NCBI RefSeq assembly: GCF_053078305.1 | Contig: NZ_CP166879.1 | Length of the DNA: 64,000 bases | Reading direction: 5' to 3' (one strand) | Shown here: piece by piece, positions 18,043 through 48,177 of the stretch | Position numbering within the stretch: the stretch's first letter is position 1 | How the letters are laid out: the number at the start of each line of letters is the position of its first letter | Notes under the pieces: model-generated | Told to the model about the DNA's origin: nothing | Database searches by the model: none | The model's input: the letters and a program-made list of their open reading frames with translations, nothing else | Translations under genes and position numbers: made by a program

Positions 18043-18054
18043 ACAGGCAGGTGA

Positions 18055-18390: not shown

Positions 18391-18580
18391 TCTACCCGCT
18401 GGATGGGCGCGGCCACTAATGGCCAGGAAGCATCATTTTTTTAAAACAGGCGAAAATATCAGTATATGTGGACGGTGGTTATATCTGGCTCATAATCGCG
18501 AGCCGGATACATTTGAAAGCCCTGATGACTGTGCCGAATGCCGCAGAAGAGTGAATAAGGAGAAAGATAATGGACAATAG
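18383..18580 (+). CDS. small Cys-containing protein
   Basis: 65-aa ORF overlapping neighbours; CxxC near C-terminus (DDCAECRRR). Confidence 0.3.
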   Translation: MNSLPAGWARPLMARKHHFFKTGENISICGRWLYLAHNREPDTFESPDDCAECRRRVNKEKDNGQ

Positions 18581-19372: not shown

Positions 19373-19378
19373 CCCCAA

Positions 19379-19407
19379 ATCCCGCCACAACGCGGGATTT
19401 TTATTTT
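19379..19407 (+). terminator. rho-independent terminator at end of early operon
   Basis: hairpin ATCCCGC-CACAAC-GCGGGAT followed by TTTTTATTTT immediately after gemA stop. Confidence 0.7.
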
Positions 19408-19441
19408 AAACTTACCGGGAACGCGAGAACCGGAGGCTGAT

Positions 19442-19867: not shown

Positions 19868-19938
19868 TATTCCGCAAAGCCTGCCGCCTCTCCTTCACCG
19901 TTACGCTGACTCAGAGAACATCATGAGACAGCGTAACA

Positions 19939-20902: not shown

Positions 20903-21104
20903 ATGGCTGGCTGACTGCCTGGTCCCTCCTGCGCCGGAGCCGTTCACGTTTGGGGCATCGGTCACTTACAACCTGCAACTGCTGGCGGTGATCAAGAACT
21001 GCAACGTGGATAAGGCCAGTATTCGTCGTCTGGAGGCGCGGCGACAACATGAATTTACTGATATGGCCGGAACGCCTGCTGTTCCGGCAGGAAAGACGAA
21101 GTAA
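20733..21104 (+). CDS. o-spanin (Rz1-like outer-membrane lipoprotein), out-of-frame overlap with i-spanin
   Basis: lipobox LTGC after hydrophobic stretch; Pro-rich mature region VKYVPVKPVPIPAEW...VPPAPEP; starts inside i-spanin in another frame. Confidence 0.5.
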   Translation: MKSNRTFSTARSSRALSAGRWQQCLRPLSLFLMMWLTGCAGPSVKYVPVKPVPIPAEWLADCLVPPAPEPFTFGASVTYNLQLLAVIKNCNVDKASIRRLEARRQHEFTDMAGTPAVPAGKTK

Positions 21105-21114
21105 GGAAAAAGGT

Positions 21115-21342
21115 ATGGATGATTCAGATCGTGCTCAGGCTGTGATGGAGCGGGGATCAGAACGCGCCCTTTGTAACCGGCTGACACGTAAGCGCCGGGC
21201 AGTGGATGCTCCGGGCAGACGTGTCTGCGCGGACTGTGGCGGAGAGATCCCCGCCGCACGTCTTGTTGCTGTGCCGGATGCCATCCGTTGTGTGAACTGC
21301 CAGAACATCATGGAGGCCCGTCATGTGGGTCAGCATCGTTAA
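21115..21342 (+). CDS. TraR/DksA-family C4 zinc-finger protein
   Basis: ~75 aa from Met MDDSDRAQ; CxxC...CxxC (CADCGGEI...CVNCQN). Confidence 0.6.
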   Translation: MDDSDRAQAVMERGSERALCNRLTRKRRAVDAPGRRVCADCGGEIPAARLVAVPDAIRCVNCQNIMEARHVGQHR

Positions 21343-21631
21343 AGATTATGTTGTGCCGATCCTTTCGGCGACGGCAACCGCTGGCGGGATATTCATGGCG
21401 CTGATGCGCAAAACGTTTGTCCCCCGCGAGGCCTTTGAAAAACTCTCCGACCGCGTTGAGAAGGTGGAAACCCGTCTGTCGTCACTGCCGACAGAAGCCG
21501 AGGTCAACCGTCTGAATGTGGAAATCGTGACCCTGCGGGGTGAACTGAAAACCACGAACGCCACGCTCCGCTCTGTCTCCTATCAGAACGAACTGCTGCT
21601 GGAGCAGGCTGTAAGGAAAAAAACGCAATGA
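21323..21631 (+). CDS. small membrane protein with coiled-coil (possible lysis accessory / releasin-like)
   Basis: 102 aa; N-terminal TM VVPILSATATAGGIFMAL then heptad-rich region; function is inference. Confidence 0.4.
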   Translation: MWVSIVKDYVVPILSATATAGGIFMALMRKTFVPREAFEKLSDRVEKVETRLSSLPTEAEVNRLNVEIVTLRGELKTTNATLRSVSYQNELLLEQAVRKKTQ

Positions 21632-21918
21632 GTGATTTCATTACTGAAGATCAGCGTCTGGTCATTCTGCGGTCGCTGGCAGATTACAACGGTGAACTGG
21701 GTGAATCCGTGCTCCAGGACTGTCTGGATGATTACGGCCACCGCGTGTCCCGCGACACCGTTCACACCCACATTGCCTGGCTTGCCGAGCAGGGACTGGT
21801 GCGCAAACGTGTTCTGATTAACGGTTATTTCATCGCAGAGCTGACCGGCCGGGGGCAGGATGTGGCGGAAGGCCGCGCCAGTGTTCCGGGTGTGAAGAAA
21901 CCACGCGCAAGGGGGTAA
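21628..21918 (+). CDS. Mu gp26-like small protein
   Basis: 96-aa ORF immediately upstream of small terminase. Confidence 0.4.
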   Translation: MSDFITEDQRLVILRSLADYNGELGESVLQDCLDDYGHRVSRDTVHTHIAWLAEQGLVRKRVLINGYFIAELTGRGQDVAEGRASVPGVKKPRARG

Positions 21919-21920
21919 CG

Positions 21921-22502
21921 ATGGACAAGCCGACGCGTGGTCGTGTACGCAAGGTGGATTTGCTCCCCGACAGTATCCGTAAGCCGCTGCTGGAAATGCT
22001 GCGTGAAAAACGTCTGACGCAGGTCCAGATCCGCGAGGAAATCAACCGTCTGATCCGTGAGGCGGGCCTGCCGGAAGAGCAGCAGCTTTCACCGGCGGCC
22101 ATCAGCCGGGAAGCCTCCCGTAATGAGCTGATTGCCCGTAACCTGCGTGATTTACGCGAGCAGACAAAAGCCATGATGGCCGAACTGGGGGACAAGCCGA
22201 CCGGTGAAACCACTGCACTGATTCTGGAGATGTCCCGCGCCCTGATGTACCGCCGTCTGCGTGCCGCCACCGAATCCCTGAACAGCGACAGCGACGTGGA
22301 TATGCGTCTTATTAAGGACATCCTCCTGTCAGCACAGCGTGCGGAAAGTGCCGCCGAGCGCAGCATTAAGCGTGAAAAAGAAATCCGGGCTGCATTTGCT
22401 GAAGAGATGGCAAACGCCGTCACCGACGAGCTGCGCGGCGTGGACGGGATGAGTGAACAGCTTGAGTCCCGTATTAAGGGGATTCTGTTGGGTAAAGCCT
22501 GA
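21921..22502 (+). CDS. terminase small subunit-like protein (Mu gp27 family)
   Basis: 193 aa; directly precedes and overlaps large terminase start. Confidence 0.65.
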   Translation: MDKPTRGRVRKVDLLPDSIRKPLLEMLREKRLTQVQIREEINRLIREAGLPEEQQLSPAAISREASRNELIARNLRDLREQTKAMMAELGDKPTGETTALILEMSRALMYRRLRAATESLNSDSDVDMRLIKDILLSAQRAESAAERSIKREKEIRAAFAEEMANAVTDELRGVDGMSEQLESRIKGILLGKA

Positions 22503-24166
22503 TGAATAACGCCGAAGAACGCTCACCCTTACTGACGAATACCGTCTCCACCCGCAAAATTGATCTGGCCGGTGAAAAAGCCCTGCTGGGCGTGGATGTG
22601 CCGGACAGCCTTGATTTGCCCGGTGATATGCCGGTGTTTCTGGATTATCAGGCCCGCTGGTTTGAGGATGAAAGCGAGGTCTGCATCGCGGAAAAATCCC
22701 GCCGCACCGGGCTTACCTGGGCGGAAGCCGGGCGTAACGTCATTACCGCTGCAAAACCGAAGCGGCGTGGTGGCCGCAATGTGTTTTATGTGGGGTCAAA
22801 GCAGGAGATGGCGCTGGAATATATTTCTGCCTGTGCATTGTTCTCCCGTGCCTTTAACCAGCTGGCCGATGCTGATGTGTATGAGCAGACCTTCTGGGAT
22901 CGGGATAAAAAAGAAGAAATTCTGACCTACATGATCCGCTTTCCGAACAGTGGATTCAAAATTCAGGCGCTGTCTTCCCGTCCGTCAAACCTGCGCGGCC
23001 TTCAGGGGGATGTGGTGATTGATGAAGCCGCGTTCCACGAGTCGCTGGATGAACTTCTCAAGGCGGCAATGGCGCTTACCATGTGGGGCGCGCGCGTGCG
23101 TATTATCTCCACGCATAACGGCGTCGATAATCTGTTTAATCAGTACATTCAGGAAGCCCGCGAGGGGCGCAAGGATTACAGCGTCCACCGCATTACCCTG
23201 GATGATGCCATTACGGACGGGTTGTACCGTCGTATCTGTTATGTCACCGGCCGCGAATGGTCACCGGAAAGCGAGCAGAAGTGGCGTGATGATCTCTACA
23301 AAAACGCCCCGACCCGTGAGGATGCCGACGAGGAATACGGCTGTATCCCGAAAAAATCCGGCGGTGCCTATATTCCTCACGCACTTATTGAAATGGCGAT
23401 GATCCGCGACATCCCGATTCTGACGTTTGAAGCCCCGGACGACTTCATCAGCCGTGCCGCATGGCTGCGTGAATCGGAAGTTTTAACCTGGTGTGAAGAA
23501 CATTTAAAACCGCTTTTAGAGGCGTTAAATCCCCGTTCCCGCTTCAGCTTCGGGGAAGACTTTGCCCGCACCGGTGACCTGTCCTGCTTTGTGCTGCTGG
23601 AAATCACTGAATCCCTGGCAAAACGCGAGGTGTTTCGCGTGGAGCTGCGCAACCTGCCGTATGCCCAGCAGGAGCAGGTGATGATGTACATCCTGACCCG
23701 CGTTCCGGCGCTGGTCGGTGCGGCGTTCGACGCCACCGGTAACGGCGGCTATCTGGCCGAAGCCGCGCTGCTGGCCTTTGGCCCGGACATCATCGACTGC
23801 GTGATGTTATCGCCGAAGTGGTACGGCGAGTGGATGCCAAAACTGAAGGCCGAGTTTGAAGATCAGAATATCCTCGTCGCCCGCCATCAGACCACGCTTG
23901 ATGATTTGCGCCATGTGAAGATGGTGAACGGTATCCCGCAAATCGACAAGGGGCGCACGAAGGACCAGAACGCAACGGCTGTGAACGCCCGCCGCCATGG
24001 CGATTTTGCCGTGGCGCTCTGTATGGCAAACCGGGCGTCATACATGGAGGGCTTCATCCTGGATGAATCAGCCTGTCAGGCGCTGCCGGAGCGGTCGCGG
24101 GCAATGGAGGGCGGTTATCGTGATGACGATGAGGCATATCATGAATTTGATCGGGGGTGCTGGTAG
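22502..24166 (+). CDS. terminase large subunit
   Basis: 554 aa; ATPase and nuclease regions; position before portal. Confidence 0.85.
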   Translation: MNNAEERSPLLTNTVSTRKIDLAGEKALLGVDVPDSLDLPGDMPVFLDYQARWFEDESEVCIAEKSRRTGLTWAEAGRNVITAAKPKRRGGRNVFYVGSKQEMALEYISACALFSRAFNQLADADVYEQTFWDRDKKEEILTYMIRFPNSGFKIQALSSRPSNLRGLQGDVVIDEAAFHESLDELLKAAMALTMWGARVRIISTHNGVDNLFNQYIQEAREGRKDYSVHRITLDDAITDGLYRRICYVTGREWSPESEQKWRDDLYKNAPTREDADEEYGCIPKKSGGAYIPHALIEMAMIRDIPILTFEAPDDFISRAAWLRESEVLTWCEEHLKPLLEALNPRSRFSFGEDFARTGDLSCFVLLEITESLAKREVFRVELRNLPYAQQEQVMMYILTRVPALVGAAFDATGNGGYLAEAALLAFGPDIIDCVMLSPKWYGEWMPKLKAEFEDQNILVARHQTTLDDLRHVKMVNGIPQIDKGRTKDQNATAVNARRHGDFAVALCMANRASYMEGFILDESACQALPERSRAMEGGYRDDDEAYHEFDRGCW

Positions 24167-25755
24167 TGGGACGCATAATTGATCTTGACGGAAAACCTTT
24201 CTCCTTTGACCCGGAGATGCAGAGTGCCGTGCTGGATATTCCGCAGATTGCCAGCCGTTATATTGAGCATCCGGCCTCGGGTATCACCCCGAACCGGGCG
24301 GCACAGTGCCTTCGCGGGGCTGAACGTGGCGATCTGATTGCCCAGTCCGATCTGGCCGCTGACATTGAAGAAAAGGATACCCATCTTTTTGCAGAGCTGG
24401 GCAAGCGACGTCTTGCCATTCAGGGGGTGCCCTGGAGTATTGAGCCGCCCCCGAACGCCAGCGCGAATGAGAAAAAGGACGCGGAAATGCTCGACGAATA
24501 CCTGCATTCCGCCGACTGGTTTGATGCCATGCTGTTTGATGCCACCGATGCCATCCTGAAAGGCTATTCCTGCATGGAGATTGAGCACGGGATGCTCGGT
24601 AAAATGCACATCATCCGCGCCATCCGCTGGCGTGACAGCGGGCATTTCTGCCTTAACCCGGATGATTTGAGCGAACTGCGGCTGCGTGACGGCAGCCATG
24701 CCGGGGTGGCGTTTCAGCCCTTTGGCTGGATAGTGCATCAGTCACGTTCACGCACCGGTTACGGCGGCGCAACAGGGCTTGTCAGAACGCTTATCTGGCC
24801 GTTCATTTTCAAAAACTATTCCGTGCGCGATCTGGCTGAATTTCTGGAGGTGTACGGCCTGCCGATGAAGGTCGGTAAATACCCGTCCGGGGCAACACCG
24901 GAGCAGAAAAGCGCCCTGATGCGGGCGGTGATGGATATCGGGCGACGTACAGGCGGGATCATCCCGGCCGGGATGTCGCTGGAGTTTCAGGCAGCCGCGA
25001 ACGGTCAGGCCGATCCGTTTGAAACCATGATTTCGTGGGGGGAGCGTTCCATCTCCAAAGCAATACTCGGCGGCACGCTGACCACGGAAGCCGGAGACAA
25101 AGGCGCGCGCTCGCTGGGTGAAGTGCATAACGAGGTGCGCCGGGAAATCAGGGATTCTGATTTACGCCAGCTGGCCGCCACGCTGAACCGCGATCTGGTG
25201 TATCCGCTGTATGCCCTGAACACCGCCCACGCCATTGATATCCGTCGCCTGCCGCGTATCTGTTTCCAGACAAAAGAGCCGGGGGATATCACCAAAATCA
25301 CCAGTGCGGTGATGCAGCTCAGTACGGGGATGGATATTCCTGATCCCTGGATAAGGGAGCAGACCGGTATTCCGCAGCCCACGCCCGGTGAAGCCATCTT
25401 CCGTGTCCGTCAGAGTGGAAATGAACCTGCTCAGACAGACAAAGAGATGCCACCGGAAAAACAGGAGAAGACAGAGCAGACAGCGCTGGCTGCCAGACTG
25501 CCGGAAGCGAAAAGCAGCCCCCGTGATGAACTGGACGACATGGGGGATGCGGTGCCTGCCCGCCGGTTACAGGAGGCCATCGACCCGCTACTGGAGCCGG
25601 TCATTGATGCCATCAGAACGCGGGGGCTGGCGGAGGCACTGGCAGACCTGCCCGCCCTTTACCGTGAAATGGATGATTCCCGCCTGATGACGCTGCTCAG
25701 TGATGCCATGTTTGCTGCGGAAATGAAGGGGATGCTGGATGGCACAGGGGATTGA
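24157..25755 (+). CDS. portal protein (Mu gp29 family)
   Basis: 532 aa; position between terminase and F. Confidence 0.85.
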   Translation: MLVVGRIIDLDGKPFSFDPEMQSAVLDIPQIASRYIEHPASGITPNRAAQCLRGAERGDLIAQSDLAADIEEKDTHLFAELGKRRLAIQGVPWSIEPPPNASANEKKDAEMLDEYLHSADWFDAMLFDATDAILKGYSCMEIEHGMLGKMHIIRAIRWRDSGHFCLNPDDLSELRLRDGSHAGVAFQPFGWIVHQSRSRTGYGGATGLVRTLIWPFIFKNYSVRDLAEFLEVYGLPMKVGKYPSGATPEQKSALMRAVMDIGRRTGGIIPAGMSLEFQAAANGQADPFETMISWGERSISKAILGGTLTTEAGDKGARSLGEVHNEVRREIRDSDLRQLAATLNRDLVYPLYALNTAHAIDIRRLPRICFQTKEPGDITKITSAVMQLSTGMDIPDPWIREQTGIPQPTPGEAIFRVRQSGNEPAQTDKEMPPEKQEKTEQTALAARLPEAKSSPRDELDDMGDAVPARRLQEAIDPLLEPVIDAIRTRGLAEALADLPALYREMDDSRLMTLLSDAMFAAEMKGMLDGTGD

Positions 25756-27064
25756 TTTAGGTTATGCCGCCACCCTTCCCTCAAAAGAGGCGGTGGCATA
25801 CTTCCGCGCCAAAGGGGCGCATATCAGCTGGAACTGGTTCGAAACAGACGCGGATGTTCATGCCCGTTCATTCACGGCGGCAAAAGCGGCACGCCTGGAC
25901 GTACTGACTACACTACAGGCGGAAGTGCAACGGGCTATTGATGAGGGGATTTCACAGAAAGCATTTATCCGCACACTGACCCCCCGCCTGCAAAAGCTGG
26001 GATGGTGGGGAAAGCAGATTGTGGTGGACAGCGCTGGTAACGCAGAAGAAGTGCAGCTGGGCAGTCCCCGCCGTCTGGCGCTGATTTACAACGTGAACAC
26101 CCGCGTGGCTTACAATGCCGGGCGTTACACGCAGATGATGAACAACACGGACACGCATCCGTTCTGGCAGTATGTGGCGGTGATGGACAGCCGCACCCGC
26201 CCGGCGCATTCCGCCCTTAACGGGCTGGTATTCCGCTATGACGATCCGTTCTGGAAAACACACTACCCGCCCAATGGCTGGAACTGCCGCTGCCGTGTCC
26301 GGCCATTGTCTCAGGCCCGTCTGGATGCGATGGGGCTGTCTGTTTCATCCGGTCAGGATCATCTCTCCACCCGCAATGTTGAGGCTGGCGTGGATAAGCA
26401 GACCGGGGAAGTCAGAGAAATGCCGGTGACCACATATTCAGATGGCACCAGAACCATGACACCGGATGTGGGCTGGTCATATAACCCCGGTTCGGCGGCG
26501 TTCGGCACAGACCAGGCGCTGATCCGTAAACTGATCGAGGTGAAAAGCCCGGCGTTACGGGAAATGGTGGTTCAGGAGATGAACAACAGCCCGGAGCGGC
26601 AGCTGGCGTTCCGCATCTGGGCAAAAAACATCATGAAAACCCGGCGAGGCGGTAACGATATCCGCACGCTGGGCTTTATGACCGAAAGTATTGCGCAGGC
26701 GGTGGAAAGCCGGACGGGAACGCCACCGGCCCGCCTGCTGGCGATGAGCGGTAAAAATGTGCTCCATGCGGACAGCGTGAAACATCAGAATGACGGTATC
26801 GCCCTGACGCCGGAGGATTTCGCGCAGTTTCCCGCCATGCTGGCTGCCCCCGATGCCGTGCTGTGGGATCATGTCCATCAGAACTTGCTTTACATCACTG
26901 AAACCCGTGACGGAACGGCAAAGATTGCCGTCAATGCGCCTTATAGTGTGAAACGTCAGCCGGATAAGCTGGATGTGGTGATTAATGCCTATAGAGTGAG
27001 CAGGAATACTCTGATTGATGCTGTTCAGGGAGGTAAGATGGAGATCCTCGAAGGGAAATTGTAA
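25739..27064 (+). CDS. Mu F-like head morphogenesis protein
   Basis: 441 aa; position after portal; size as Mu gpF. Confidence 0.8.
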   Translation: MAQGIDLGYAATLPSKEAVAYFRAKGAHISWNWFETDADVHARSFTAAKAARLDVLTTLQAEVQRAIDEGISQKAFIRTLTPRLQKLGWWGKQIVVDSAGNAEEVQLGSPRRLALIYNVNTRVAYNAGRYTQMMNNTDTHPFWQYVAVMDSRTRPAHSALNGLVFRYDDPFWKTHYPPNGWNCRCRVRPLSQARLDAMGLSVSSGQDHLSTRNVEAGVDKQTGEVREMPVTTYSDGTRTMTPDVGWSYNPGSAAFGTDQALIRKLIEVKSPALREMVVQEMNNSPERQLAFRIWAKNIMKTRRGGNDIRTLGFMTESIAQAVESRTGTPPARLLAMSGKNVLHADSVKHQNDGIALTPEDFAQFPAMLAAPDAVLWDHVHQNLLYITETRDGTAKIAVNAPYSVKRQPDKLDVVINAYRVSRNTLIDAVQGGKMEILEGKL

Positions 27065-27151
27065 GTCGGTGGTGGGGGTCGAACCCACATAAACATCCTT
27101 CGGGTGAAGATATCCCTCAGGTGCCGCTTTACCAGTTAAGAGTACACCGAC
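27065..27151 (-). tRNA. degenerate tRNA-Leu-like element (anticodon-loop GAG), no encoded CCA
   Basis: minus strand: 7-bp acceptor stem GTCGGTG/CACCGAC, consensus T-arm GTGGG-TTCGACC-CCCAC adjacent to acceptor 3' strand, U8, loop CTGAGGG with U33, ~20-nt variable region; D and anticodon stems imperfect. Confidence 0.4.
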
Positions 27152-27189
27152 CTGCTTTTATTTTAACCAGGTAGTTTCACGGAGGCAAT

Positions 27190-27663
27190 ATGTCATCCAT
27201 TGATGCCGCTGTCGTTGTTGACGTTACGCGTCTCCAGCGGGTCTTTGCCCGGCTTCAGTTTGTGGGTGGTGGAAAAGACCTGGCCCGCAGTGTGGCGGCG
27301 AGTCTTCTGTCATCGTCAGAAATGGCGTTTGAACAGGAAAAAGAGCCGGACGGCGAACGCTGGCATGACTGGTCAGATCCTTACCGCAAGTGGCGTACCC
27401 GTAAGGGATACATGCCCGGCAAAATCCTGACGCTGAACGGCGATCTGGCCCGACGCCTGACCACGGATTATGGAGATACCTGGGCGCTGATTGGATCAAA
27501 TGAGCCTTATGCGGCCATTCATCAGTGGGGTGGCCTGCCAGGTATGCCGCCTGGACCGGCGGCCATTGGTGCACGTCCGTATATGGGCTTTGATCAGGTG
27601 GCAGAGCAGGAGATCATGGACGAAATCAGAAAACGCTTTAAAAAGGCCACAGAAACGCCTTAA
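27190..27663 (+). CDS. virion morphogenesis protein (Mu G family)
   Basis: 157 aa; position after F. Confidence 0.7.
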   Translation: MSSIDAAVVVDVTRLQRVFARLQFVGGGKDLARSVAASLLSSSEMAFEQEKEPDGERWHDWSDPYRKWRTRKGYMPGKILTLNGDLARRLTTDYGDTWALIGSNEPYAAIHQWGGLPGMPPGPAAIGARPYMGFDQVAEQEIMDEIRKRFKKATETP

Positions 27664-27838
27664 TTGTTTAAGGTATGCAAATGCATTACCTTACCCCCTT
27701 CAGGCGCGTGTCGTGATTTTCTAACCTGTATTTAACGGGCTTTAAAATCTGCGTGAAGCGCCTTTGCATTTTTCCCTGAAAATACTTCCTGAAATCCCGC
27801 AAAACCCGCCCTGAAAATTCCCGGCTTATGCTGCCGGT
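27664..27838 (+). promoter_or_regulatory. candidate C-dependent late promoter region upstream of protease/scaffold gene (PI-like)
   Basis: 175-bp gap in otherwise tightly packed late genes; three direct CCTGAAA(A)T repeats and a near-palindrome GGTATGCAAATGCATTACC; Mu has a late promoter at this position. Confidence 0.35.
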
Positions 27839-28972
27839 ATGAAGACAGAAAATCACCCAAAAGACGCAAATCGCCCCTCTGGTTTAGCCGTGCTTTCAGC
27901 TTCGCTGACTGCATCCGGCGACGGATGGTGTCAGTTACTGCCAGCAGGCAGGGTAAAGGCCCGTGACGGTCGCCCGGAAAAACCGGCTGAAGGCTGGCTG
28001 ATTAACGAATCCGCCTGCAACCGGATGAAAGCCGGGCTTTCCGCCCTGAATCAGCCGTTACTGATTGATTATGACCATCACTCCATGAATGCGCGGAAAA
28101 ACGGATTCAAGGCCATTGCCGCAGGTTGGGTTAAGCCGGAAAACATCGAATGGCGTGAGGGTCAGGGGATTTTCATTAAACCTGAATGGACGCCGCAGGC
28201 CCAAAAACATATTGATGACCGTGAATATGCCTATCTGTCTGCGTATATGCATTATTTCGCTGACACCGGGGAACCCTACCTGTTGCGCATGGCTTCCCTG
28301 ACGAATGATCCAGGTATTACGGGTATGAACCCTGTCGCAGCACTCAGTGCTGACGATCTCTATGTAGTTTCCCCTTCTCAGGAGCAACACCCCATGAATG
28401 AGCAATTACGCCAGTTGCTGACGGCGCTCGGTCTGACCGTGGCTGATGGTGACGAATTTACGCCGGAGCTGGGCACGGCAGCGCTGTCTGCCCTCACCGG
28501 GATCAAAACCCGTGCGGATGCACACGACAACCTGAAAACACAGGTCGCCTGTCTGTCGGCAGAGCTGGAAACTGCAAAAGGCACACCGGCTGGCGGCAGT
28601 ATTGATCTGACGAAATACGTGCCCGTTGAAACGTATAACGCCCTGCGTACCGAATACGTTGCGCTGTCGGCGCAGCACGGCAGCACCACGCTGGAGCAGT
28701 TGCTGGACAAGGCCGAGTCCGAAGGACGCATCTTCAAAAGTGAACGCGGCTATCTGGAACAACTGGGCGGGCAGATTGGCGTGGCGGCACTTTCTGCACA
28801 GCTTGACGCCCGACAGCCGGTTGCGGCCCTGACCGGTCTTCAGACCGACACCGTGACCGTGCCGGATAAAAAGACTGCCACCGCTGTGCTGTCGGCTGAA
28901 GATATCGCGGCCGCCAAACTGCTGGGTAAAACCGAAGCCGAGTTCCTGAAAATGAAAGAGGAAATGCAATAA
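27839..28972 (+). CDS. head maturation protease / scaffold (Mu I family)
   Basis: 377 aa; N-terminal protease-like region, C-terminal helical Ala/Leu-rich scaffold-like region; order I-T. Confidence 0.8.
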   Translation: MKTENHPKDANRPSGLAVLSASLTASGDGWCQLLPAGRVKARDGRPEKPAEGWLINESACNRMKAGLSALNQPLLIDYDHHSMNARKNGFKAIAAGWVKPENIEWREGQGIFIKPEWTPQAQKHIDDREYAYLSAYMHYFADTGEPYLLRMASLTNDPGITGMNPVAALSADDLYVVSPSQEQHPMNEQLRQLLTALGLTVADGDEFTPELGTAALSALTGIKTRADAHDNLKTQVACLSAELETAKGTPAGGSIDLTKYVPVETYNALRTEYVALSAQHGSTTLEQLLDKAESEGRIFKSERGYLEQLGGQIGVAALSAQLDARQPVAALTGLQTDTVTVPDKKTATAVLSAEDIAAAKLLGKTEAEFLKMKEEMQ

Positions 28973-39573: not shown

Positions 39574-40655
39574 TGCCTTATCAGCCCTTACCACTGGCGC
39601 AACTGATCACACAGACACAACAGGATATCAGCCAGCGCCTGCCCGGTTCGCAGCCGGGCGTGAATGAAACCACCCTGAATGCCATTGCGTATGCACTGGC
39701 GGGTCTGTCAGCACAGGAGCATGAACATCTGGCCTGGATCTCCCGGCAGATAATTCCGACAGAAGCTGATGAAGCCGAACTCCTGAAACACTGCGCATTC
39801 TGGGGTGTCATCCGTAAACCGGCTTCCCGCGCTGACGGACCGGTACAACTGATGCTGACCACGGATGCAGGGATCACGGAAGGCGTACTCCTTCAGCGAA
39901 GCGATGGTGTTGTGTACCGCATCACCGGCTCTGCGACCGGAAAAGCCGGAACACTGAATGTTAATGTGGAGGCGGAAAGTGCGGGGCGCGCCGGAAATAC
40001 CCCGACCGGAACCCGCCTGTCCTTTATCACGCCACAGGCGGGCATCAACCAGACAGCCACGGTTACCGGCACGGGACTCACCGGTGGTGCGGATGTGGAA
40101 ACGGTGCCGGAGTTGCTGTCCAGGCTGGTATTCCGGGTACAGAACCCGCCATCAGGGGGAACACAGTATGATTTTGAACGTTGGGCACGGGAAGTACCGG
40201 GCGTGACGCGGGCATGGTGTAAGCCTGAATGGCCAGAGGCGGGTAGTGTTGGTGTGACTTTTGTTCAGGATAATAACCCTGACATTTTCCCCGGAGAAGG
40301 TGATGTGAAGCGGGTGGCGGATTATATCCGCAGTCATGATGATCCGGCGACGGGCCAGCCCGTTGGTCAGCCACTTGGGCCGACAATCAGCGTGTTTAAG
40401 CTGACCAATAAGCCGGTGGCGTTTGAGATCAGGATTGTACCCAAAACGCCGGAAAATCAGGCTGCCGTAAAACAGGCATTAACGGACCTGCTTTATAACG
40501 AATCGCGGCCGGGTGGACTTGTATTGCCTTCATCATTCTGGCGGGCTGTTGCAGGGGTGAAAGGACTGGAGGATTTTGAAGTTCGCAGTCCGCTGAAGTC
40601 CGTAATGGCCGGAGATACAGAGTTGCTGACCGTGGGGGAAATCACATGGCTGTAA
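39570..40655 (+). CDS. baseplate wedge protein (Mu gp47, J-like)
   Basis: 361 aa. Confidence 0.7.
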   Translation: MMPYQPLPLAQLITQTQQDISQRLPGSQPGVNETTLNAIAYALAGLSAQEHEHLAWISRQIIPTEADEAELLKHCAFWGVIRKPASRADGPVQLMLTTDAGITEGVLLQRSDGVVYRITGSATGKAGTLNVNVEAESAGRAGNTPTGTRLSFITPQAGINQTATVTGTGLTGGADVETVPELLSRLVFRVQNPPSGGTQYDFERWAREVPGVTRAWCKPEWPEAGSVGVTFVQDNNPDIFPGEGDVKRVADYIRSHDDPATGQPVGQPLGPTISVFKLTNKPVAFEIRIVPKTPENQAAVKQALTDLLYNESRPGGLVLPSSFWRAVAGVKGLEDFEVRSPLKSVMAGDTELLTVGEITWL

Positions 40656-41206
40656 CCCTGACCCCGCATCAGCGCGCCCTGTTGCAGTTGCTGCCTGACG
40701 GGCTGGCATGGGATAAGCGGCCGTCATCCGTTCTTGCAGCTTTGTGCCTGGGTCTCAGTCATTCCACGGAGCGTGTTTCCTGGACCGGTAACCAGATGCT
40801 GGCAGAACGTTTTCCTGATTCATCCCGTCTGCTACTGGAAGACTGGGAGCGTTATCTGGGGTTACCGGAATGTGATATGACCGGCGCAACCATTCAGGAG
40901 CGTCAGCGTTATGCCGGGAATAAATACCGGATGAAACCCTCTCTTAACCGTGAATTTTATATCCGGTTTGCGGCAGAGTTTGGTTATGAAATAGATATCC
41001 AGCCATCACCGGAATCACAATGGATCAGTATTGTGACAGTGAAGACGGCGGTGGGATACCGTCACATGAATGTGCTGGATGATATTCTCACGCCGCTGCG
41101 TATTTATGAAGGCGGTGCGCTGGAATGTATTCTGAACCGTTATAAGCCTGCATGGCAGACGTTTATTTACGTGTATGCAAACAGCCATGAAGAGGAGACT
41201 ATTTAA
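40646..41206 (+). CDS. baseplate / tail protein (Mu gp48)
   Basis: 186 aa. Confidence 0.65.
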   Translation: MAVTLTPHQRALLQLLPDGLAWDKRPSSVLAALCLGLSHSTERVSWTGNQMLAERFPDSSRLLLEDWERYLGLPECDMTGATIQERQRYAGNKYRMKPSLNREFYIRFAAEFGYEIDIQPSPESQWISIVTVKTAVGYRHMNVLDDILTPLRIYEGGALECILNRYKPAWQTFIYVYANSHEEETI

Positions 41207-42117
41207 TGTTTCATGTTGATAATAATTCCGGCGTGGCGAATATGCCTGCGCTGGCACCGGCGCAGAGTAATACCACCACCTGGTTTACCGAAGGTGACGG
41301 ACAAAAAGGTATCAGCTGGATTGGTCAGGACTGGCTGAATATTCTCCAGGCCGAACTGCTGAATATTCTGGCTGAAGCCAGTATTCAGCCGGATAAGGCG
41401 CAGTTAAACCAGCTTACGCTGTCCATTAAAGCCATTATCGCTGCGAATGCCTTTTCCCGGAAAAACAACCTGAAAGAAATTGCTGATGCCGGTGCGGAAG
41501 CCCAGCGTCTTGCCCGTGGTTATCTTGGTCTTGGGGCGCTTGCCACAAAAAACAGTCTTGGTCCCGGTGACGTTAATGCTCTGGCGAAGGATCAGAACCT
41601 TGCCGACCTGGAGAATGCGGGAACCGCCCGTAATAATCTGGATGTTTACAGCAAAAGCGAAGGTGATAACCGTTACCTGCGCAGGGAGCAGAACGGCGCA
41701 GACATTCCGGATAAAGGCGCTTTTATCGATAACGTCGGTTTACGGGAAACGGTAAATAAGGCTGCTGATGCCCTGCCATCGGGTGGAACCGCCGTGGCAG
41801 CAAACAGACTCGCCACCCCAAGAAATATTAATGGCGTTCCTTTTGACGGAACGCAGGATATCAACATCACGTCAGGAATGACGCAGTCAACCGCAGATGG
41901 CCGGTATGTACAGAATGTTCAGCTTGGAGCACAGAGCTATCATTCACCCGGAGGCAATGAAATATCATGGAATTACAGCGCACCTTCCGGTTGTATGCTT
42001 TCCGGTATTAACGTGCAGGAAACCGGCTCCCGGTCTGCGGACAATATCGGTGGGGTCTATTATCGCCCGGTTCAGATTTATATTAATAATGCCTGGAGAA
42101 CGGTAAGTTCAGTGTAA
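41206..42117 (+). CDS. tail fiber protein S; C-terminal ~120 codons lie inside the invertible segment (Sv in current orientation)
   Basis: 303 aa; C-terminus homologous to the minus-strand alternative segment (YYRPVQIYINNAWRTVSS vs YYRPVQFLIDGSWKTASS). Confidence 0.8.
   Translation: MFHVDNNSGVANMPALAPAQSNTTTWFTEGDGQKGISWIGQDWLNILQAELLNILAEASIQPDKAQLNQLTLSIKAIIAANAFSRKNNLKEIADAGAEAQRLARGYLGLGALATKNSLGPGDVNALAKDQNLADLENAGTARNNLDVYSKSEGDNRYLRREQNGADIPDKGAFIDNVGLRETVNKAADALPSGGTAVAANRLATPRNINGVPFDGTQDINITSGMTQSTADGRYVQNVQLGAQSYHSPGGNEISWNYSAPSGCMLSGINVQETGSRSADNIGGVYYRPVQIYINNAWRTVSSV
41735..41888 (+). repeat. left inverted repeat of invertible segment
   Basis: TCGGTTTACGGG ... CCAAGAAATATTAATGG ... 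ACGCAGTC matches reverse complement of 42957-43110. Confidence 0.7.
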
Positions 42118-42151
42118 ACCACAGAAAAGGGTGCTGAATGCACCCTCTGAA

Positions 42152-42673
42152 TTATTCCGGTTTTTCCGGCCAGGGAATCGCCTGGTAATGCCCCTCACTG
42201 GCAATATCATTAAAGTGCATTTCTTTAAGCTGTCGGATATACGCCATCCAGCGCGTCAGCTGTAATTTATTTTCATCGCTAATCATGTCCAGTTTTAATT
42301 CTGTTTTCCAGTCATCCACGGTTTCGTTGGCTTCCTGGAGCAGCGATGAGCGACGCTTTTCAGCAACCGTCTTCCAGTTTACCGGCACCTTTGATATCAG
42401 GCCATCAGAAAACTGCCAGTTACCGTCAATATTCACACCTTCCGGCAGTTCGTCCACTTCAACAACAGTAAAACCTGCCGGATATAAAGCAGAGACATCT
42501 TCAGCAACAGAGCAGATAATACCCGTTACAGGCGAAATACAGAGTTTGTATTTCTTTGTGAAAAGCGGGATAGATTCATAAAAATCCCTTCCGTCCTCAC
42601 TCTGGAAATACTGAACATCCTCACCATAGGGTTTGTGTTCCGGGTAATATCGTTTTACGTTAATAAGCTCCAT
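42152..42673 (-). CDS. tail fiber assembly chaperone (Tfa/U-like), inverted relative to S in current orientation
   Basis: ~174 aa from MELINVKRYYPE; typical Tfa N-terminus; lies inside invertible segment. Confidence 0.75.
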   Translation of the reverse strand: MELINVKRYYPEHKPYGEDVQYFQSEDGRDFYESIPLFTKKYKLCISPVTGIICSVAEDVSALYPAGFTVVEVDELPEGVNIDGNWQFSDGLISKVPVNWKTVAEKRRSSLLQEANETVDDWKTELKLDMISDENKLQLTRWMAYIRQLKEMHFNDIASEGHYQAIPWPEKPE

Positions 42674-42752
42674 TATTTCACCTTGTTTTTGTTGAAAAGA
42701 CAAAATCATCATATATTTATTCAGATAATCTGTTTTTTGAACTACTGCACTT

Positions 42753-43095
42753 TTATGCGCTGGAAGCTGTTTTCCACGAACCATCTATCAGAAACTGAAC
42801 AGGTCGATAATATGCGGTTACCGTTGCATTACCATCACCAGCGACATCAAGCCCTGTAAGTACGCATCCGTCAGGAACTTCAAAAATATTATATTGCATT
42901 CCAATCGTTGACCTTGAACCTCTTCGAATGCTTTGAACATAACGTGAGTCAGCCACAGACTGCGTCATCCCCGATGTAATATTTATATCCTGCGTTCCGT
43001 CAAATGGGACACCATTAATATTTCTTGGAGTGGCGAGTTTATTCGCTGCAACAGCCGTTCCGTTCGATGGCAGGGCATTCGCGGCCCTGTTTACA
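42753..43095 (-). CDS. alternative tail-fiber C-terminal segment (Sv'-like), promoterless in current orientation
   Basis: minus-strand frame open from the right gix site; homologous to S C-terminus (MTQSVADSRYVQ..., YYRPVQFLIDGSWKTASSA). Confidence 0.65.
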
Positions 43096-43110
43096 GTATC
43101 CCGTAAACCG
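42957..43110 (-). repeat. right inverted repeat of invertible segment
   Basis: reverse complement matches 41735-41888 with scattered mismatches. Confidence 0.7.
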
Positions 43111-43177
43111 AGGTTTCAGGGATGCCGTATATCTGCTTTAAAAGGCCTTTCCACCTCTTTTTAAGGAAGGTAAATAC

Positions 43178-43738
43178 ATGCTGATTGGCTATATACGCGT
43201 ATCAACAAATGACCAGAACACCGGTTTACAAAGAAATGCGCTGGAATGTGCAGGATGTGAGCAGATTTTTGAAGACAAAATGAGTGGTAAAACGACACAG
43301 CGGCCGGGACTGAAGCGGGCACTGAAGAAACTAAAACCCGGTGACACACTGATGGTCTGGAAACTGGACAGGCTGGGGCGCAGTATGCGCCACCTTGTTG
43401 CGCTGACAGATGAATTACAGCAACAGGGGATAAATTTTCGTAGTCTTACTGACAACATTGATACGTCAACCCCCATGGGGCGCTTCTTTTTTCACATAAT
43501 GGGTGCGCTGGCAGAAATGGAGCGTGAATTAATTGTCGAACGGACACGGGCTGGTCTTGCAGCTGCCCGTGAAAGGGGACGAACCGGCGGCAGACCCCGT
43601 CGTCTCACGCAGGAACAATACGAGCAGGTCGGGCGTTTACTGGCCGGGGGTGTCAGTCGAAGACAGGTGGCACTTATTTTTGATATCGGCCTTTCAACCC
43701 TTTATCGTTATTATCCTGCGAGCGTTTCGGAAAAATAA
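43178..43738 (+). CDS. gin: Gin/Hin/Pin-family serine DNA invertase
   Basis: 186 aa; catalytic-Ser N-terminus MLIGYIRVSTNDQN; C-terminal HTH; adjacent to invertible segment. Confidence 0.9.
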   Translation: MLIGYIRVSTNDQNTGLQRNALECAGCEQIFEDKMSGKTTQRPGLKRALKKLKPGDTLMVWKLDRLGRSMRHLVALTDELQQQGINFRSLTDNIDTSTPMGRFFFHIMGALAEMERELIVERTRAGLAAARERGRTGGRPRRLTQEQYEQVGRLLAGGVSRRQVALIFDIGLSTLYRYYPASVSEK

Positions 43739-43828
43739 GACGCTCCCTTTGTTGGGCCTTTACTGAATTAACGCAAAATGGCGTTTATCGGTCTGTGGAT
43801 ATGATAATTCTGTTTATTCAGGAACAGG

Positions 43829-45886
43829 ATGAATATTATGACGTCCAAATGGGTTCAACTATCATCAATGCCCGGAAACTTTACCGTTAAAGTTTCCGGT
43901 GGTACAGCGGCATTTCTTGAGGCTCCCTTTCCTCCTGCTGAAACGAAAGGAGGAATGACATTTGCTGACTGTCTCATCAGTTTTAATACACAGGATTGCC
44001 TGTGGGTAAGGCCAGTATCCGGTGATCCGAACGTGGAAATTACCGGAGCGGGTATTGGTGCTGTCATTCCGTTAAGTGCTGATGTTGCCGGTACTACTGA
44101 ACCGTCAGACTGGGATAATGCAGAAACACATACCCGTCCGGCAGGAAATGAAACGGCTTCCAGCTCCCCTTCCTGGTATTACGTGATTGTTATAGCCGGC
44201 CAGTCCAATGCTTCATCTTATGGTGAAGGGTTGCCCCTTCCGGATTCTTATGATCGTCCTGATCCACGTATTATGCAGCTGGCACGCAGGAATACACAAA
44301 CCCCCGGAGGTATTCCCTGCAAATACAATGAAATCATTCCAGCAGATCACTGCCTTCATGATGTTCAGAATATGAGTCTGCTGAACCATCCAAAAGCAGA
44401 CCTGAAAAAAGGGCAGTATGGTTGTGTGGGGCAGGGACTTCATATTGCGAAAAAAGTATTACCGGTGATTCCTGCTGATGCCGGGATTTTACTGGTTCCC
44501 TGTGCCCGTGGCGGCTCTGCTTTTACAACCGGCGCAGTTGGCTCATTCGATCCGGCAAGTGGTGCAGCCGAGGCGTCACTACGCTGGGGAGTGGATACCC
44601 CACTGTATCAGGATCTTGTCAGTCGAACTAAAGCGGCACTTGAGGCGAATCCAAAGAATGTGCTGTTATCTGTCGTATGGATTCAGGGGGAAGGAGACCT
44701 TAAAGCGACCCCGGCCCAGCATGGTGCCCAGTTTACTGCGATGGTGAAAAAATTCCGTGCGGATCTTGGGGCTTTCTCCGGTCAGTGTATTGGTGGTTCA
44801 TCAGACAGTGTGCCGTGGTTATGTGGTGACACAACCTATGACTGGAAAGAGAAGAACCCGGCGGCATATGAAACCATTTATAGCGGATATAAAAACCGGG
44901 CTTCCGAGAACATTCACTTTGTTCCACTGATGCACGATGAGTTCGGTAATAAAACCGCGACCAACCTGCCGGAGCACGACCCGGATATCGCTTCTGCCGG
45001 GTATTATGGTGCGGAATCACGGGGAGATGGCAACTGGACAACAGCATCCAGGGCAACCCATTTTAGCTCCTGGGCGCGCCGTTTTCTGGTCTCAGATCGT
45101 TTTGCATCAGCAATTCTTAAATATGCAGGTCTGACCTCTGCATTTATTGCCGGTGTGGCCCCTGATGGTGAAACCCTGCCTCAGCCCGCGCCGGGTGGGA
45201 AACCGGAAGCGCCGACAGGTAGTCAGCCAGGAGGCAGTGAGTCCCCCCATCCGACATCCCCGTCACTCCGTACGCTGCTTTCACTTAAAGCATCAGCAGG
45301 AGAAGCCCCGGCTCAGGGCTGGAAAATTACAGATGGTACAATCCAGCTGACGGACGAAGGTAAAGCGTTGACCGTATCCAAACAAAGCGGAAAAACCTGG
45401 ACGCTTACCCATGGAACTGATGCAGCCGGTGAACTTCTGAAGCATGGTGGTCAGTTGACCTGTAAATTCCGTCTGTCAGGTGAAGTAAAAGAAGGCCAGT
45501 TTGCTCTGGGTATTTACCTCCACACCGATACGGTCCCGGAAGGTGTAACCATGAGTGGTACAGGCACACCGTTCCTGATGGCGTATTATCTCCAGACAAC
45601 AGGCGGCCAGTTAAATCTGATGCACCATAAAACAGGGGGGAATACGAAACTGGGATCATTTGGAGCCTACAATAACCAGTGGCATACACTTGTCCTGAAG
45701 TTTACGGCGGGAAGTGCCCAGGTAACGCCTGTGCTGGATGGCACTCCGGGCCAGGCATTCCAGATGGTGAAAGATGCACTTTCCCCTGCCAAAGATACGC
45801 TGACACTGACAGATGTCACCAAAGGGGCAACTTATGGCGTGTCTTTTGAGAGCGTTGTCCTTGAGGTTAATACCCCTGCGGCATAA
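43829..45886 (+). CDS. cargo protein with central SGNH / sialate-O-acetylesterase-like domain and C-terminal beta-sandwich domain
   Basis: 685 aa; GQSNASSYGE motif after a hydrophobic strand, typical of SASA/DUF303 esterases; Pro/Gly-rich linker PQPAPGGKPEAPTGSQPGGSESP; Mu has no gene here. Confidence 0.6.
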   Translation: MNIMTSKWVQLSSMPGNFTVKVSGGTAAFLEAPFPPAETKGGMTFADCLISFNTQDCLWVRPVSGDPNVEITGAGIGAVIPLSADVAGTTEPSDWDNAETHTRPAGNETASSSPSWYYVIVIAGQSNASSYGEGLPLPDSYDRPDPRIMQLARRNTQTPGGIPCKYNEIIPADHCLHDVQNMSLLNHPKADLKKGQYGCVGQGLHIAKKVLPVIPADAGILLVPCARGGSAFTTGAVGSFDPASGAAEASLRWGVDTPLYQDLVSRTKAALEANPKNVLLSVVWIQGEGDLKATPAQHGAQFTAMVKKFRADLGAFSGQCIGGSSDSVPWLCGDTTYDWKEKNPAAYETIYSGYKNRASENIHFVPLMHDEFGNKTATNLPEHDPDIASAGYYGAESRGDGNWTTASRATHFSSWARRFLVSDRFASAILKYAGLTSAFIAGVAPDGETLPQPAPGGKPEAPTGSQPGGSESPHPTSPSLRTLLSLKASAGEAPAQGWKITDGTIQLTDEGKALTVSKQSGKTWTLTHGTDAAGELLKHGGQLTCKFRLSGEVKEGQFALGIYLHTDTVPEGVTMSGTGTPFLMAYYLQTTGGQLNLMHHKTGGNTKLGSFGAYNNQWHTLVLKFTAGSAQVTPVLDGTPGQAFQMVKDALSPAKDTLTLTDVTKGATYGVSFESVVLEVNTPAA

Positions 45887-45943
45887 TCGTGACGGCCGGG
45901 AATTTATCCGGCTGTAACATCAGTTAATAAGAGTGAGGCTTAT

Positions 45944-46123
45944 ATGACATATATAAACGTCTGCCTGCTGTATTTCTGCACGGTGGTTTGTTGTCTGTTG
46001 CTTGTCAGCGGTGGTTATAAAATTATTCGCAATTATTTTCGAAATAAAATTGATGCAGCTGCCGAGGAAAAGATAAAAAGCGGTGCTGTAATGCCGCAGC
46101 CGAAAGACTCCGGTCAGATTTAA
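45944..46123 (+). CDS. small membrane protein (59 aa)
   Basis: ATG with GAGG Shine-Dalgarno 6 nt upstream; hydrophobic Cys-rich N-terminus CLLYFCTVVCCLLLVSGG; below the 60-aa ORF-track cutoff. Confidence 0.4.
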   Translation: MTYINVCLLYFCTVVCCLLLVSGGYKIIRNYFRNKIDAAAEEKIKSGAVMPQPKDSGQI

Positions 46124-46158
46124 TTTTTTGTGAACCAGAAAAGGAAAGGAGAATATTC

Positions 46159-46404
46159 ATGCCAGAGATTAAAGGCACGGTTACTGAAGAGCTTGTCAAA
46201 CAGGCACTTTATTCTGAAGAAGTGAACCGCGTGCTGAAGGCGCAGGTTCGCAAGGATTTTGAGGCACAAATCGACGCATATGTTGATGAAGTGCTGGCCC
46301 GAATGGTTGGTCGTTCTCCGGCTGAAAACAGCACGGAAAATGAGCCTCAACCCGTAGAGCAACCAGAGCCGGTTCAACCCGGAACTGACGGTACTATGAT
46401 GTAA
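46159..46404 (+). CDS. small acidic hypothetical protein
   Basis: 81 aa; AGGAG Shine-Dalgarno upstream; acidic Pro/Glu-rich C-terminus. Confidence 0.45.
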   Translation: MPEIKGTVTEELVKQALYSEEVNRVLKAQVRKDFEAQIDAYVDEVLARMVGRSPAENSTENEPQPVEQPEPVQPGTDGTMM

Positions 46405-46442
46405 CAATACCGACCGGCAGGTTTCCCTGCCGGGTGAATTTG

Positions 46443-46613
46443 TTAATGCACGTTTTGTGTATTTTCCCTCCGGGGAGAACAGGCAGGACATATCAGCATC
46501 CTGAAACAGGAAGCATTTTTTGGTTTGTATGTCTTGCCATTTTGAGATCGAGAACGGCGATAGATGAGCTGTAAGGGAGTCTTACAGGCAGGGCAAACAG
46601 GCTCTTTATCCAT
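46443..46613 (-). CDS. small zinc-ribbon protein (two CPAC motifs)
   Basis: 56 aa from internal Met (MDKEPVCPACKTPL...ICPACSPRR); AAGGAGA Shine-Dalgarno 8 nt upstream on minus strand. Confidence 0.45.
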   Translation of the reverse strand: MDKEPVCPACKTPLQLIYRRSRSQNGKTYKPKNASCFRMLICPACSPRRENTQNVH

Positions 46614-46721
46614 GATAAAGATCTCCTTTTTATGCATCTCTGCTTTACAGGAGACCGGGGAATATCATAGGATACGCCACGAGCTCGAAGTAAAGCATTG
46701 ATGCAAGTTTTTACAGATTGA

Positions 46722-46756
46722 CCCAGCATAGTTCCAGCTATGCTGGGTTTCCCTTT
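46722..46756 (+). terminator. rho-independent terminator-like hairpin (or palindromic operator)
   Basis: perfect 10-bp inverted repeat CCCAGCATAG-TTCCAG-CTATGCTGGG followed by TTTCCCTTTTA. Confidence 0.5.
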
Positions 46757-46757
46757 T

Positions 46758-47019
46758 ATGTAGTATCCTGTTGATTTGAAACATACTACATATACGCGCG
46801 ATCCTACCTTCACTGTATAAAAAGTCAATAAAATGATCATTTTATGATCGTTTTCACCACCTAACTCTTCGTTTCTTTAAGTAAATAATCACCGCCCTGA
46901 ATCATTGTTGATGACTTTTAAATCTATTTGTTGTATCAATTAAACAAATCGAATCGATCGTTTTTGTCGATCGATTGCATGAGAAAGGCATCAACAACAA
47001 AGCAGGAGGTTATGCGGCC
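46758..47019 (+). promoter_or_regulatory. com-mom control region with dyad symmetries and Dam GATC cluster
   Basis: ATGTAGTAT-N16-ATACTACAT dyad (46758-46791); palindrome AAATGATCATTT (46831-46842); GATC at 46800, 46835, 46846, 46956, 46969; two TCGATCG motifs 13 bp apart ~50-65 bp upstream of com. Confidence 0.5.
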
Positions 47020-47220
47020 ATGTATCGAAACATACGGTGCCGACACTGCAATAAGCTACTGGCACGGGCCAGTTTCAGTTATCTGGAAGTAAAATGTCCG
47101 CGCTGTAAAACCCTCAATCAAATCACATCTCCGAGCGCCACAGAGCACCCCACATACACAAGGAAATCCTGTCGTGGGGAACAGAAAGCAAGTCACATCC
47201 CGTATCATCAGCACGCCTGA
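47020..47220 (+). CDS. com: Com zinc-finger translational activator of mom
   Basis: 67 aa; [10 protein letters not shown]...[12 protein letters not shown] parallels Mu Com as recalled; AGGAGG Shine-Dalgarno upstream; overlaps mom start. Confidence 0.8.
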
Positions 47221-47911
47221 ACTTATTCGCTATAACGACAATATCGTTGGTTATGGCTCCCGTGAGTTGCGGGTTGAGACAATAAGTTGCTGGCTGGCCA
47301 GACTGGTTATCGTCAATAAACATTACAGCCACCGTTTCGTAAATAATTCCTACCTTCATCTGGGTATATTTTCAGAACGGGAACTTGTTGGCGTAATGCA
47401 ATGGGGTTACGCCCTTAACCCAAACAGTGGTGCACGCGTCGTAACGGGTACGCAGAACCGAGAATATATGGAGCTTAACCGGCTATGGATGCATGACTGT
47501 ATGCCGAGAAACTCCGAATCAAGGGCAATCAGTTACGCGCTCAAGCTAATCAGGCAGCTTTATCCGCAGGTACAGTGGGTTCAGTCGTTTGCAGATGAGC
47601 GTTGTGGCTGTCTTGGTGTCGTGTATCAGGCAAGCAATTTTGATTATGTAGGCAGCCATGAATCAACATTCTATGAACTTGATGGCGAGTGGTATCACGA
47701 GATTTGCAGGAGTGCCATTAAACGAGGCGGACAACGAGGTGAACATCTGAGGGCTAATATCGACAGAGCCAGTGTGCATAAGTTCCGACAGTTTCGTTAC
47801 ATCCGGTTTCTGAACAAGAGGGCCAGAAAACGCCTCAACACAAAGCTATTCAAAGTCCAGCCTTACCCAAAACCACAAACAGTTAAAACTGGTTTGAAAG
47901 AGAGTGAATGA
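47174..47911 (+). CDS. mom: Mom DNA-modification enzyme (adenine N6 modification, anti-restriction)
   Basis: 245 aa; last prophage gene, overlapped by com as in Mu; family assignment from position and com linkage. Confidence 0.7.
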
Positions 47912-47957
47912 GCGCTTAAAAACTCATTCTAAAACTCAAAAGAAAAGCGCCGATTTA

Positions 47958-48039
47958 GTATCAAATAAGTTGCGTATCGGCGTTTTTCAGCGGTATCAAA
48001 TGAAATGCAAATCGGTATCAAAAAAATCGCCGCGCTATA
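47958..48039 (+). repeat. prophage right end (attR-like) with three transposase-binding-site repeats
   Basis: AGTATCAAA (47958), GGTATCAAA (47992), GGTATCAAA (48014): inverted copies of the left-end motif, clustered like Mu R1-R3; terminus placed where ftnB reading frame diverges. Confidence 0.6.
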
Positions 48040-48177
48040 CTGGGCGCGAAGGAAAGTGGCGGTGCCGTTCAGACTCTGTTCAGAACACCAGTTACTCAGG
48101 TGAAGGTAGAGATTGGATGCGTAAAACTCGCGGTTCATTTGAGAGTTGAGTTTGAGAAGCATTCCAGCGGTTGCCAT
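48040..48177 (-). pseudogene. ftnB: ftnB (ferritin-like protein) 5' fragment, truncated by prophage right end
   Basis: minus-strand ORF begins [46 protein letters not shown] (ferritin-like N-terminus) then runs into phage end sequence. Confidence 0.7.

Follow-up and report, generated by a model that had tools for sequence, protein, structure and literature searches.

Bacteriophage Mu, like D108 and SfMu, is a temperate transposable phage that encodes an A transposase and a B ATPase, carries three transposase-binding repeats at each end, inserts nearly at random and bears com and mom at its right end. The CA dinucleotide is said to be important in Mu, as Lee and Harshey reportedly found in 2001. 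The same chemistry is used by retroviral integrases, which belong to a different class of element, and in which the duplication length varies between related enzymes, being 4 bp for MLV and PFV and 6 bp for ASLV. To our knowledge, the retroviral elements all keep CA-3′ ends. HIV makes a 5-bp duplication, and so does Mu, which carries CA at both ends (TG...CA in its own record) and joins to its target with a 5-bp stagger (PMC3562280), CA-3′ being the usual site of cleavage by DDE enzymes (PMC10122671). A survey from 2021 found TG-CA conserved in all Mu- and B3-like phages and prophages described so far, with the exception of a set of Leptospira prophages (the WETA1 group) that carry TA at both ends and are apparently actively transposing; both B3 and the Leptospira prophages make 6-bp duplications (PMC8705779). 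The Leptospira elements are thus a published precedent that TG-CA is not obligatory.

Among the prophages of Escherichia coli, Sp18 of the O157:H7 strain Sakai is predicted to be intact and packages its DNA efficiently (PMC2669165), and Sp18-like phages occupy variable sites in STEC strains, consistent with transposition (PMC7430833, PMC10132054). The 64,000-nt stretch of DNA analysed here (referred to as the window) contains a complete Sp18-type, Mu-like transposable prophage of 39,143 bp on the + strand (8897..48039), the ends of which were defined from seven independent insertions and from native yegH and ftnB. This prophage is colinear with six other copies at 90–98% nucleotide identity and has the same ends (TGTAACCAGG...GCCGCGCTATA) as Sakai Sp18 and the Sp18-like phages of STEC, so that identity, colinearity and ends all place it in the Sp18 type. 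With Sp18 it has in common a gene order of repressor, ner-like gene, A and B, then Gam, Mor and lysis genes, followed by head and tail genes, an invertible tail-fibre segment and com-mom, whereas the immunity region and a few modules differ, as does the insertion site (yegH/ftnB with rearranged flanks in the window, sorM in Sakai). The prophage of strain FRIK804, which is 96.5% identical to Sp18 (PMC7430833), is identical to the right end of the window prophage over its last 65 nt.

At the left side of the prophage, a CI-type HTH repressor gene (9169..9729, – strand) belongs to an immunity module that is variable between family members. The gene for the 695-aa MuA-type transposase A (10148..12235, + strand) is adjoined by that for a MuB-type AAA+ transposition ATPase (12307..13239, + strand) with Phage-MuB_C (2.5e-25) and AAA_22 matches. 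Mu-like late genes are present, and the rightmost genes, as in Mu, are those of a com-mom module (46975..47911, + strand; com 46975–47220, mom 47174–47911). BLASTP aligned transposase A with MuA over its full length at 22% identity (E 1e-13), and Pfam revealed the Mu-transpos_C (1.3e-17) and HTH_Tnp_Mu_1 (8e-8) domains of a Mu-type DDE transposase, the alignment with MuA suggesting D308, D374 and E414 as the catalytic triad. The element resembles Mu in the general features listed above, but its end repeats (TTGATACY) are unrelated in sequence to those of Mu, its termini are TG...TA instead of TG...CA, and its target duplication is 4 bp instead of 5 bp, so that neither hallmark of Mu in the strict sense (terminal TG...CA and a 5-bp duplication) is found. 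With the Leptospira prophages it shares transposability and a non-canonical TA terminus, but those elements have TA at both ends, a 6-bp duplication, a B3/Tn552-like TnpA, and an unrelated sequence and host, whereas the left end here is TG and the duplication 4 bp.

The right terminus was positioned by alignment to the intact ftnB gene of strain SK1144 (...ACTCTGTGC|CTGGGCGCG). The + strand of the window reads ...aatcggtatcaaaaaaatcgccgcgcTATA|ctgggcgcgaagg, or ...aatcggtatcaaaaaaatcgccgcgcTATA|ctgggcgcgaaggaaagtgg when followed further into the host side, with the break between 48039 and 48040 and host homology beginning at 48040. Megablast of positions 47800–48300 against 5,426 complete E. 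coli genomes revealed chromosomal (ftnB) homology from 48040 in more than 5,400 of them. The ftnB frame, which runs on the – strand from 48177 down to 48040, is native for codons 1–46 and then diverges, placing the junction between codons 46 and 47 and leaving a 5′ fragment of ftnB (48040..48177, – strand) that was cut by the insertion. Because the base preceding 48040 is an A in the window and a C in native ftnB, the junction lies no further to the left, and because the base following TATA varies among independent junctions, it lies no further to the right. The + strand of the prophage terminates ...ATCGCCGCGCTATA at 48039, and the right terminus (48023..48039, + strand) reads ...AAAATCGCCGCGCTATA, with TA-3′ and not CA-3′ as its terminal dinucleotide (48038–48039); CA is absent from the last 19 nt of this end. 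The original prediction that the right end finishes in TA (GCGCTATA) where ftnB diverges was thereby confirmed, and the ±2-bp uncertainty that had accompanied it was removed. Cleavage at the internal CA of GGTATCA, 19 nt inside the end, was considered as well and rejected, because the 19 nt beyond it are in every case transposed along with the rest of the element.

The left junction, at 8897, reads ...ggcttcg|TGTAACCAGGTGAATCATTTGATACC. The left terminus (8897..8922, + strand) opens with a canonical 5′-TG, which reads as CA-3′ on the bottom strand, and includes the outermost repeat for transposase binding, TTGATACC (8915–8922). From the window alone this junction is ambiguous by 1 nt, native yegH likewise having a T at that position, but the ambiguity is resolved by the family consensus, the left-terminus sequence being identical in six loci (L002–L006 and L009) and in Sakai Sp18. 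This consensus agrees with the earlier proposal of a left end starting TGTAACC, and the spacing proposed with it, in which both termini lie 17 nt outside their outermost site, also held, at 17–18 nt: the outermost TTGATACC stands 18 nt from either terminus (8915–8922 on the + strand, 48014–48021 on the – strand), in equal register at both ends. A motif scan located the inner left-end TTGATACY repeats at 9010–9017 and 9062–9069 (+ strand) and the three right-end repeats at 48014–48021, 47992–47999 and 47957–47964 (– strand; spacing 22 and 35 nt). Across the window TTGATACY matches 10 times, where chance would give 2.8, and six of the 10 lie at the two prophage ends, three per end and inverted between the ends, as in Mu-type transposable phages.

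Two further repeats were observed in or near these regions. An extra perfect end-binding repeat (CATTTGATACC) is present in the short A–B intergenic gap (12283–12290, – strand) and is kept in another family member (L005 4898–4908), where, as in the window, it may serve inside the element for transposase binding or for regulation. Directly downstream of mom, a 13-nt inverted repeat (GAAAAGCGCCGAT / ATCGGCGTTTTTC; 47942–47988) overlaps the innermost right-end binding repeat and looks like a terminator embedded in the right end.

The TA right end proved to be widespread. The 1,040-nt right end was found in 232 of the 5,426 complete E. coli genomes, at 291 places, with up to 4–5 copies per genome, and its last 65 nt matched 216 records (214 genomes) at 259 places in many different genes. 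These 65 nt were identical in at least 202 of the 216 matching complete E. coli records, spread across loci (identity being scored as at least 99% over 65 nt, a threshold that 202 records meet), and 60 of 60 evenly sampled rows aligned through the final base of the right end. Moreover, all 20 independent right junctions that were compared (from five E. coli loci, GenBank LC727881 and 15 IMG/VR contigs, the latter found with a probe that stopped short of the terminus) carried GCGC-TATA. The base after TATA was A in eight, T in six, C in five and G in one (20 in the tally), with 19 junctions extending past TATA and one locus ending exactly there. A right-end variant finishing in CA was not seen among the family members examined. 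The terminal 65 nt of the window copy are the consensus, and not those of an end-mutated, defective prophage. Judged by this conservation, the TA-3′ end is the norm in the Sp18-type family, very probably as its working end, and is no lesion of the window copy.

The target duplication was examined in six full insertions, located in melA, a ydjL-like dehydrogenase gene, dacD, two lambdoid prophage genes and the Stx2c phage of LC727881. When terminus offsets (±3) and duplication lengths (2–8 bp) were scanned jointly, all six insertions fitted only at offsets 0,0 with a duplication of 4 bp (CGTT, TGGA, TGAT, TCTT, CGAC and CATC), whereas the best 5-bp model fitted two of the six. Joining the flanks of the melA insertion and removing one 4-bp copy reconstructed an empty site that matched intact melA without gaps (160/160). 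Sakai Sp18 provided a seventh insertion (...ggtattaaa|TGTAACC...GCGCTATA|taaagaac, duplication TAAA), its true extent being 5040970..5079724 (loci L033 and L034), and a clean 4-bp target duplication thus bounded TGTAACC...GCGCTATA in seven out of seven cases. In LC727881.1, the depositors had independently labelled 4-bp repeats 'duplication due to insertion of Mu_JNE082796', a prophage with exactly the Sp18-type ends. As expected of a Mu-type element, the family has inserted at numerous unrelated positions and has left a short target duplication in every full insertion examined. The junctions and their spread contradict vertical inheritance of the TA-ended copies at just a few loci. These alignments document the position of the terminus, its conservation, its many independent insertion sites and the 4-bp duplication at the level of sequence.

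The nearest isolated phages are vB_YpM_5 and vB_YpM_6, plaque-forming phages that were isolated as infecting Yersinia pestis and whose transposase is 81% identical to that of the window prophage. More distant transposases are those of Klebsiella phages (57% identity), SuMu and Mannheimia phages (about 43%) and D3112-like phages (about 31%). Comparison of vB_YpM_5/6 with three prophages of their type from E. coli revealed that this lineage shares the TTGATAC end repeats, the 18-nt register, the TA-3′ right end (...GCGCGCTTTA) and the 4-bp duplication, while its left end (TATAGAGAGG or TATGAAGAGG) starts with TA where the Sp18 type has TG. The aligned ends of the clade accordingly fall into two patterns, TG...TA (Sp18 type) and TA...TA (YpM_5 type). 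Two clean insertions of the YpM_5 type carried 4-bp duplications (AGCC and CGCG), bringing the number of insertions with a 4-bp duplication to nine out of nine over the two lineages. The existence of a sister lineage with TA at both ends, isolated phages included, argues that TA-3′ is a competent substrate for the enzyme of this clade.

By analogy with Mu (PMC3562280), the A protein, a MuA-related DDE transposase, would assemble on the three TTGATACY repeats at each end and would nick by hydrolysis on the 3′ side of the terminal A, which lies 18 nt beyond the outermost repeat. The two resulting 3′-OH ends would then be joined to target phosphates 4 bp apart, the constant 4-bp duplication implying a 4-bp stagger. 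With a 3′-terminal dinucleotide of CA at the left and TA at the right, either pyrimidine would be accepted at the penultimate position, and Mu's sequence rules need not apply, because the transposase is only 22% identical to MuA. Nicking chemistry, stagger and DDE residues are in this respect expected to follow from the established Mu mechanism. We consider it very probable that 48023–48039 represents the genuine, wild-type form of the right end (attR) in an Sp18-type prophage, and that the transposase of the clade cuts after either TA-3′ or CA-3′ with a 4-bp stagger.

The alternative that fares best also takes TA as normal for the family, but supposes that it is deliberately weaker than the CA left end and so imposes an order or a check on end cleavage. 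A comparable asymmetry between left and right ends has been reported for IS2, and the Sp18 type does consistently present CA-3′ at its left and TA-3′ at its right end. Since the sister lineage with TA at both ends still transposes, however, such asymmetry is not required, and we regard this explanation as rather unlikely. The TA end may nonetheless be a quantitatively weaker substrate than the CA end, although the genomic spread of the family suggests that it is cleaved efficiently.

It is far less probable that a 5-bp stagger, as in Mu (PMC3562280), is disguised as a 4-bp duplication because a single terminal nucleotide was lost or replaced in the course of repair. In our reading, the RefSeq boundaries of Sp18 were drawn on just such an assumption, that is, on an imperfect 5-bp repeat (TAAAT/TAAAG), but the outermost T and A are invariant from site to site and differ from the bases of the target, an empty site with exactly 4 bp removed gives a perfect ungapped match, and 4 bp holds in both lineages. 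The corresponding RefSeq feature (prophage Sp18 in NC_002695.2, 5040971..5079729) takes the G of TGTAACC as its first base, 1 nt too far in, and extends 5 nt past ...GCGCTATA.

Hardly any weight remains for a copy-specific C-to-T change at the penultimate position that crippled end cleavage, as the original prediction expected of a penultimate T, and stranded the prophage. That expectation arose because the rule was borrowed from Mu, which, like many DDE elements, ends in CA-3′ (PMC3562280, PMC10122671), and the mismatched flanks of the window prophage could suggest an abnormal history. Against it, the same terminus is the family consensus in at least 202 records and at many loci, all 20 right junctions end in TATA with no CA-right-ended member among them, the seven full TA-ended insertions all carry clean duplications, and the closest plaque-forming relatives end in TA. 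The TA-3′ end is accordingly not a lesion, and it gives no reason to regard the window copy as immobile. That the junction is instead misplaced by 1–3 bp and the true end is a canonical CA can practically be dismissed, for although a junction often cannot be placed exactly when only one sequence is at hand, as is the case by 1 nt on the left side here, native ftnB differs directly before 48040, the base after TATA varies, the last 19 nt hold no CA and the offset scan rejects every alternative.

The flanks of the window copy do not match each other. On the left lies a 5′ fragment of the TerC-family gene yegH (8275..8896, + strand; alignment to native yegH), cut by the insertion, and on the right lies ftnB; the two genes are about 250 kb apart in SK1144 and inverted here in their relative orientation. 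As the left flank is yegH, the window alone gives no duplication to test. The yegH-side copy of the expected 4-bp duplication would be TTCG (8893..8896, + strand; native yegH GGC-TTCG-TCATTCC) and the ftnB-side copy CTGG (48040..48043, + strand; native ftnB TGC-CTGG-GCG), each with its partner outside the window. The remainder of ftnB was not found in the window by tblastn, and neither window junction occurs in any of the 5,426 complete RefSeq E. coli genomes. A simple deletion between yegH and ftnB does not fit the orientation. Rather, the mismatched flanks look like one junction of a later large inversion between two oppositely oriented prophage copies, arising either by homologous recombination or by intramolecular replicative transposition. 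Under such an inversion the reciprocal junctions are predicted to read ...GCGCTATA|TTCGTCATTCC, leading into the 3′ part of yegH, and ...CTCTGTGCCTGG|TGTAACCAGG, with the 3′ part of ftnB. Non-matching flanks were also observed around a YpM_5-type prophage (locus L028; NZ_CP066032.1 4018721–4059721), which lies between a fragment of an SDR oxidoreductase gene and a truncated permease gene adjoining ycjO; as with the window copy, these flanks point to an adjacent deletion or a rearrangement in which the phage was involved.

For the Sp18 clade, a search that covered literature outside subscription journals found no paper on TA ends or on 4-bp duplications, the papers on SuMu and PluMu held no end information, and the only trace of a 4-bp repeat was the annotation in GenBank LC727881. 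The element itself is a member of a known phage group, and its end chemistry an under-described variant of the Mu scheme. We give about even chances to the broader proposal that the Sp18/vB_YpM_5 clade is an undescribed MuA-type branch that staggers by 4 bp, next to the 5 bp of Mu (PMC3562280) and the 6 bp of B3 and the Leptospira prophages (PMC8705779), and that accepts TA-3′ as well as CA-3′. If so, the clade would lend itself naturally to studying the part that the 'conserved CA' plays in DDE catalysis, and, being experimentally tractable in E. coli, would permit direct tests of what the penultimate C does and of what sets the length of the stagger. The significance is modest: chiefly, the family departs from the textbook Mu rule, which has consequences for the annotation of prophage boundaries. 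About 4% of complete E. coli genomes carry the clade, which obeys neither the TG-CA nor the 5-bp rule, so that boundary or 'defectiveness' calls based on Mu (TG...CA, 5 bp) will misjudge this family of phages, a common one in STEC; the Sp18 feature of Sakai in RefSeq, off by 1 nt at the left and 5 nt at the right, is an example of a boundary misplaced in this manner, and in the window the TA terminus is no evidence of a dead prophage.

Away from its ends, the family is variable. Segments corresponding to 9070–10310, 17373–18042, 28007–28388, 41481–42935 and 44641–46144 of the window are missing in some or all of the six other members, among them the immunity region (repressor/ner) and the tail-fibre/invertible segment. 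The phage family is thus mosaic, with heteroimmune variants, and its ends are nevertheless conserved. In three relatives, PGAP annotated a 'tRNA-OTHER' between the head-morphogenesis and virion-morphogenesis genes (L002 21890–21969, L003 21982–22061 and L004 20059–20138), at a position corresponding to about 27064–27190 of the window; ARAGORN detected no tRNA in the window's prophage. In some members (L005, L006 and LC727881), the mom gene that follows com is swapped for an annotated DNA cytosine methyltransferase gene (the region concerned is 47188–47938 in the window, 39785–40837 in L005 and 665–1717 in L006), the last ~100 bp of the right end still being conserved. This replacement of mom looks like an exchange of an anti-restriction module under com control.
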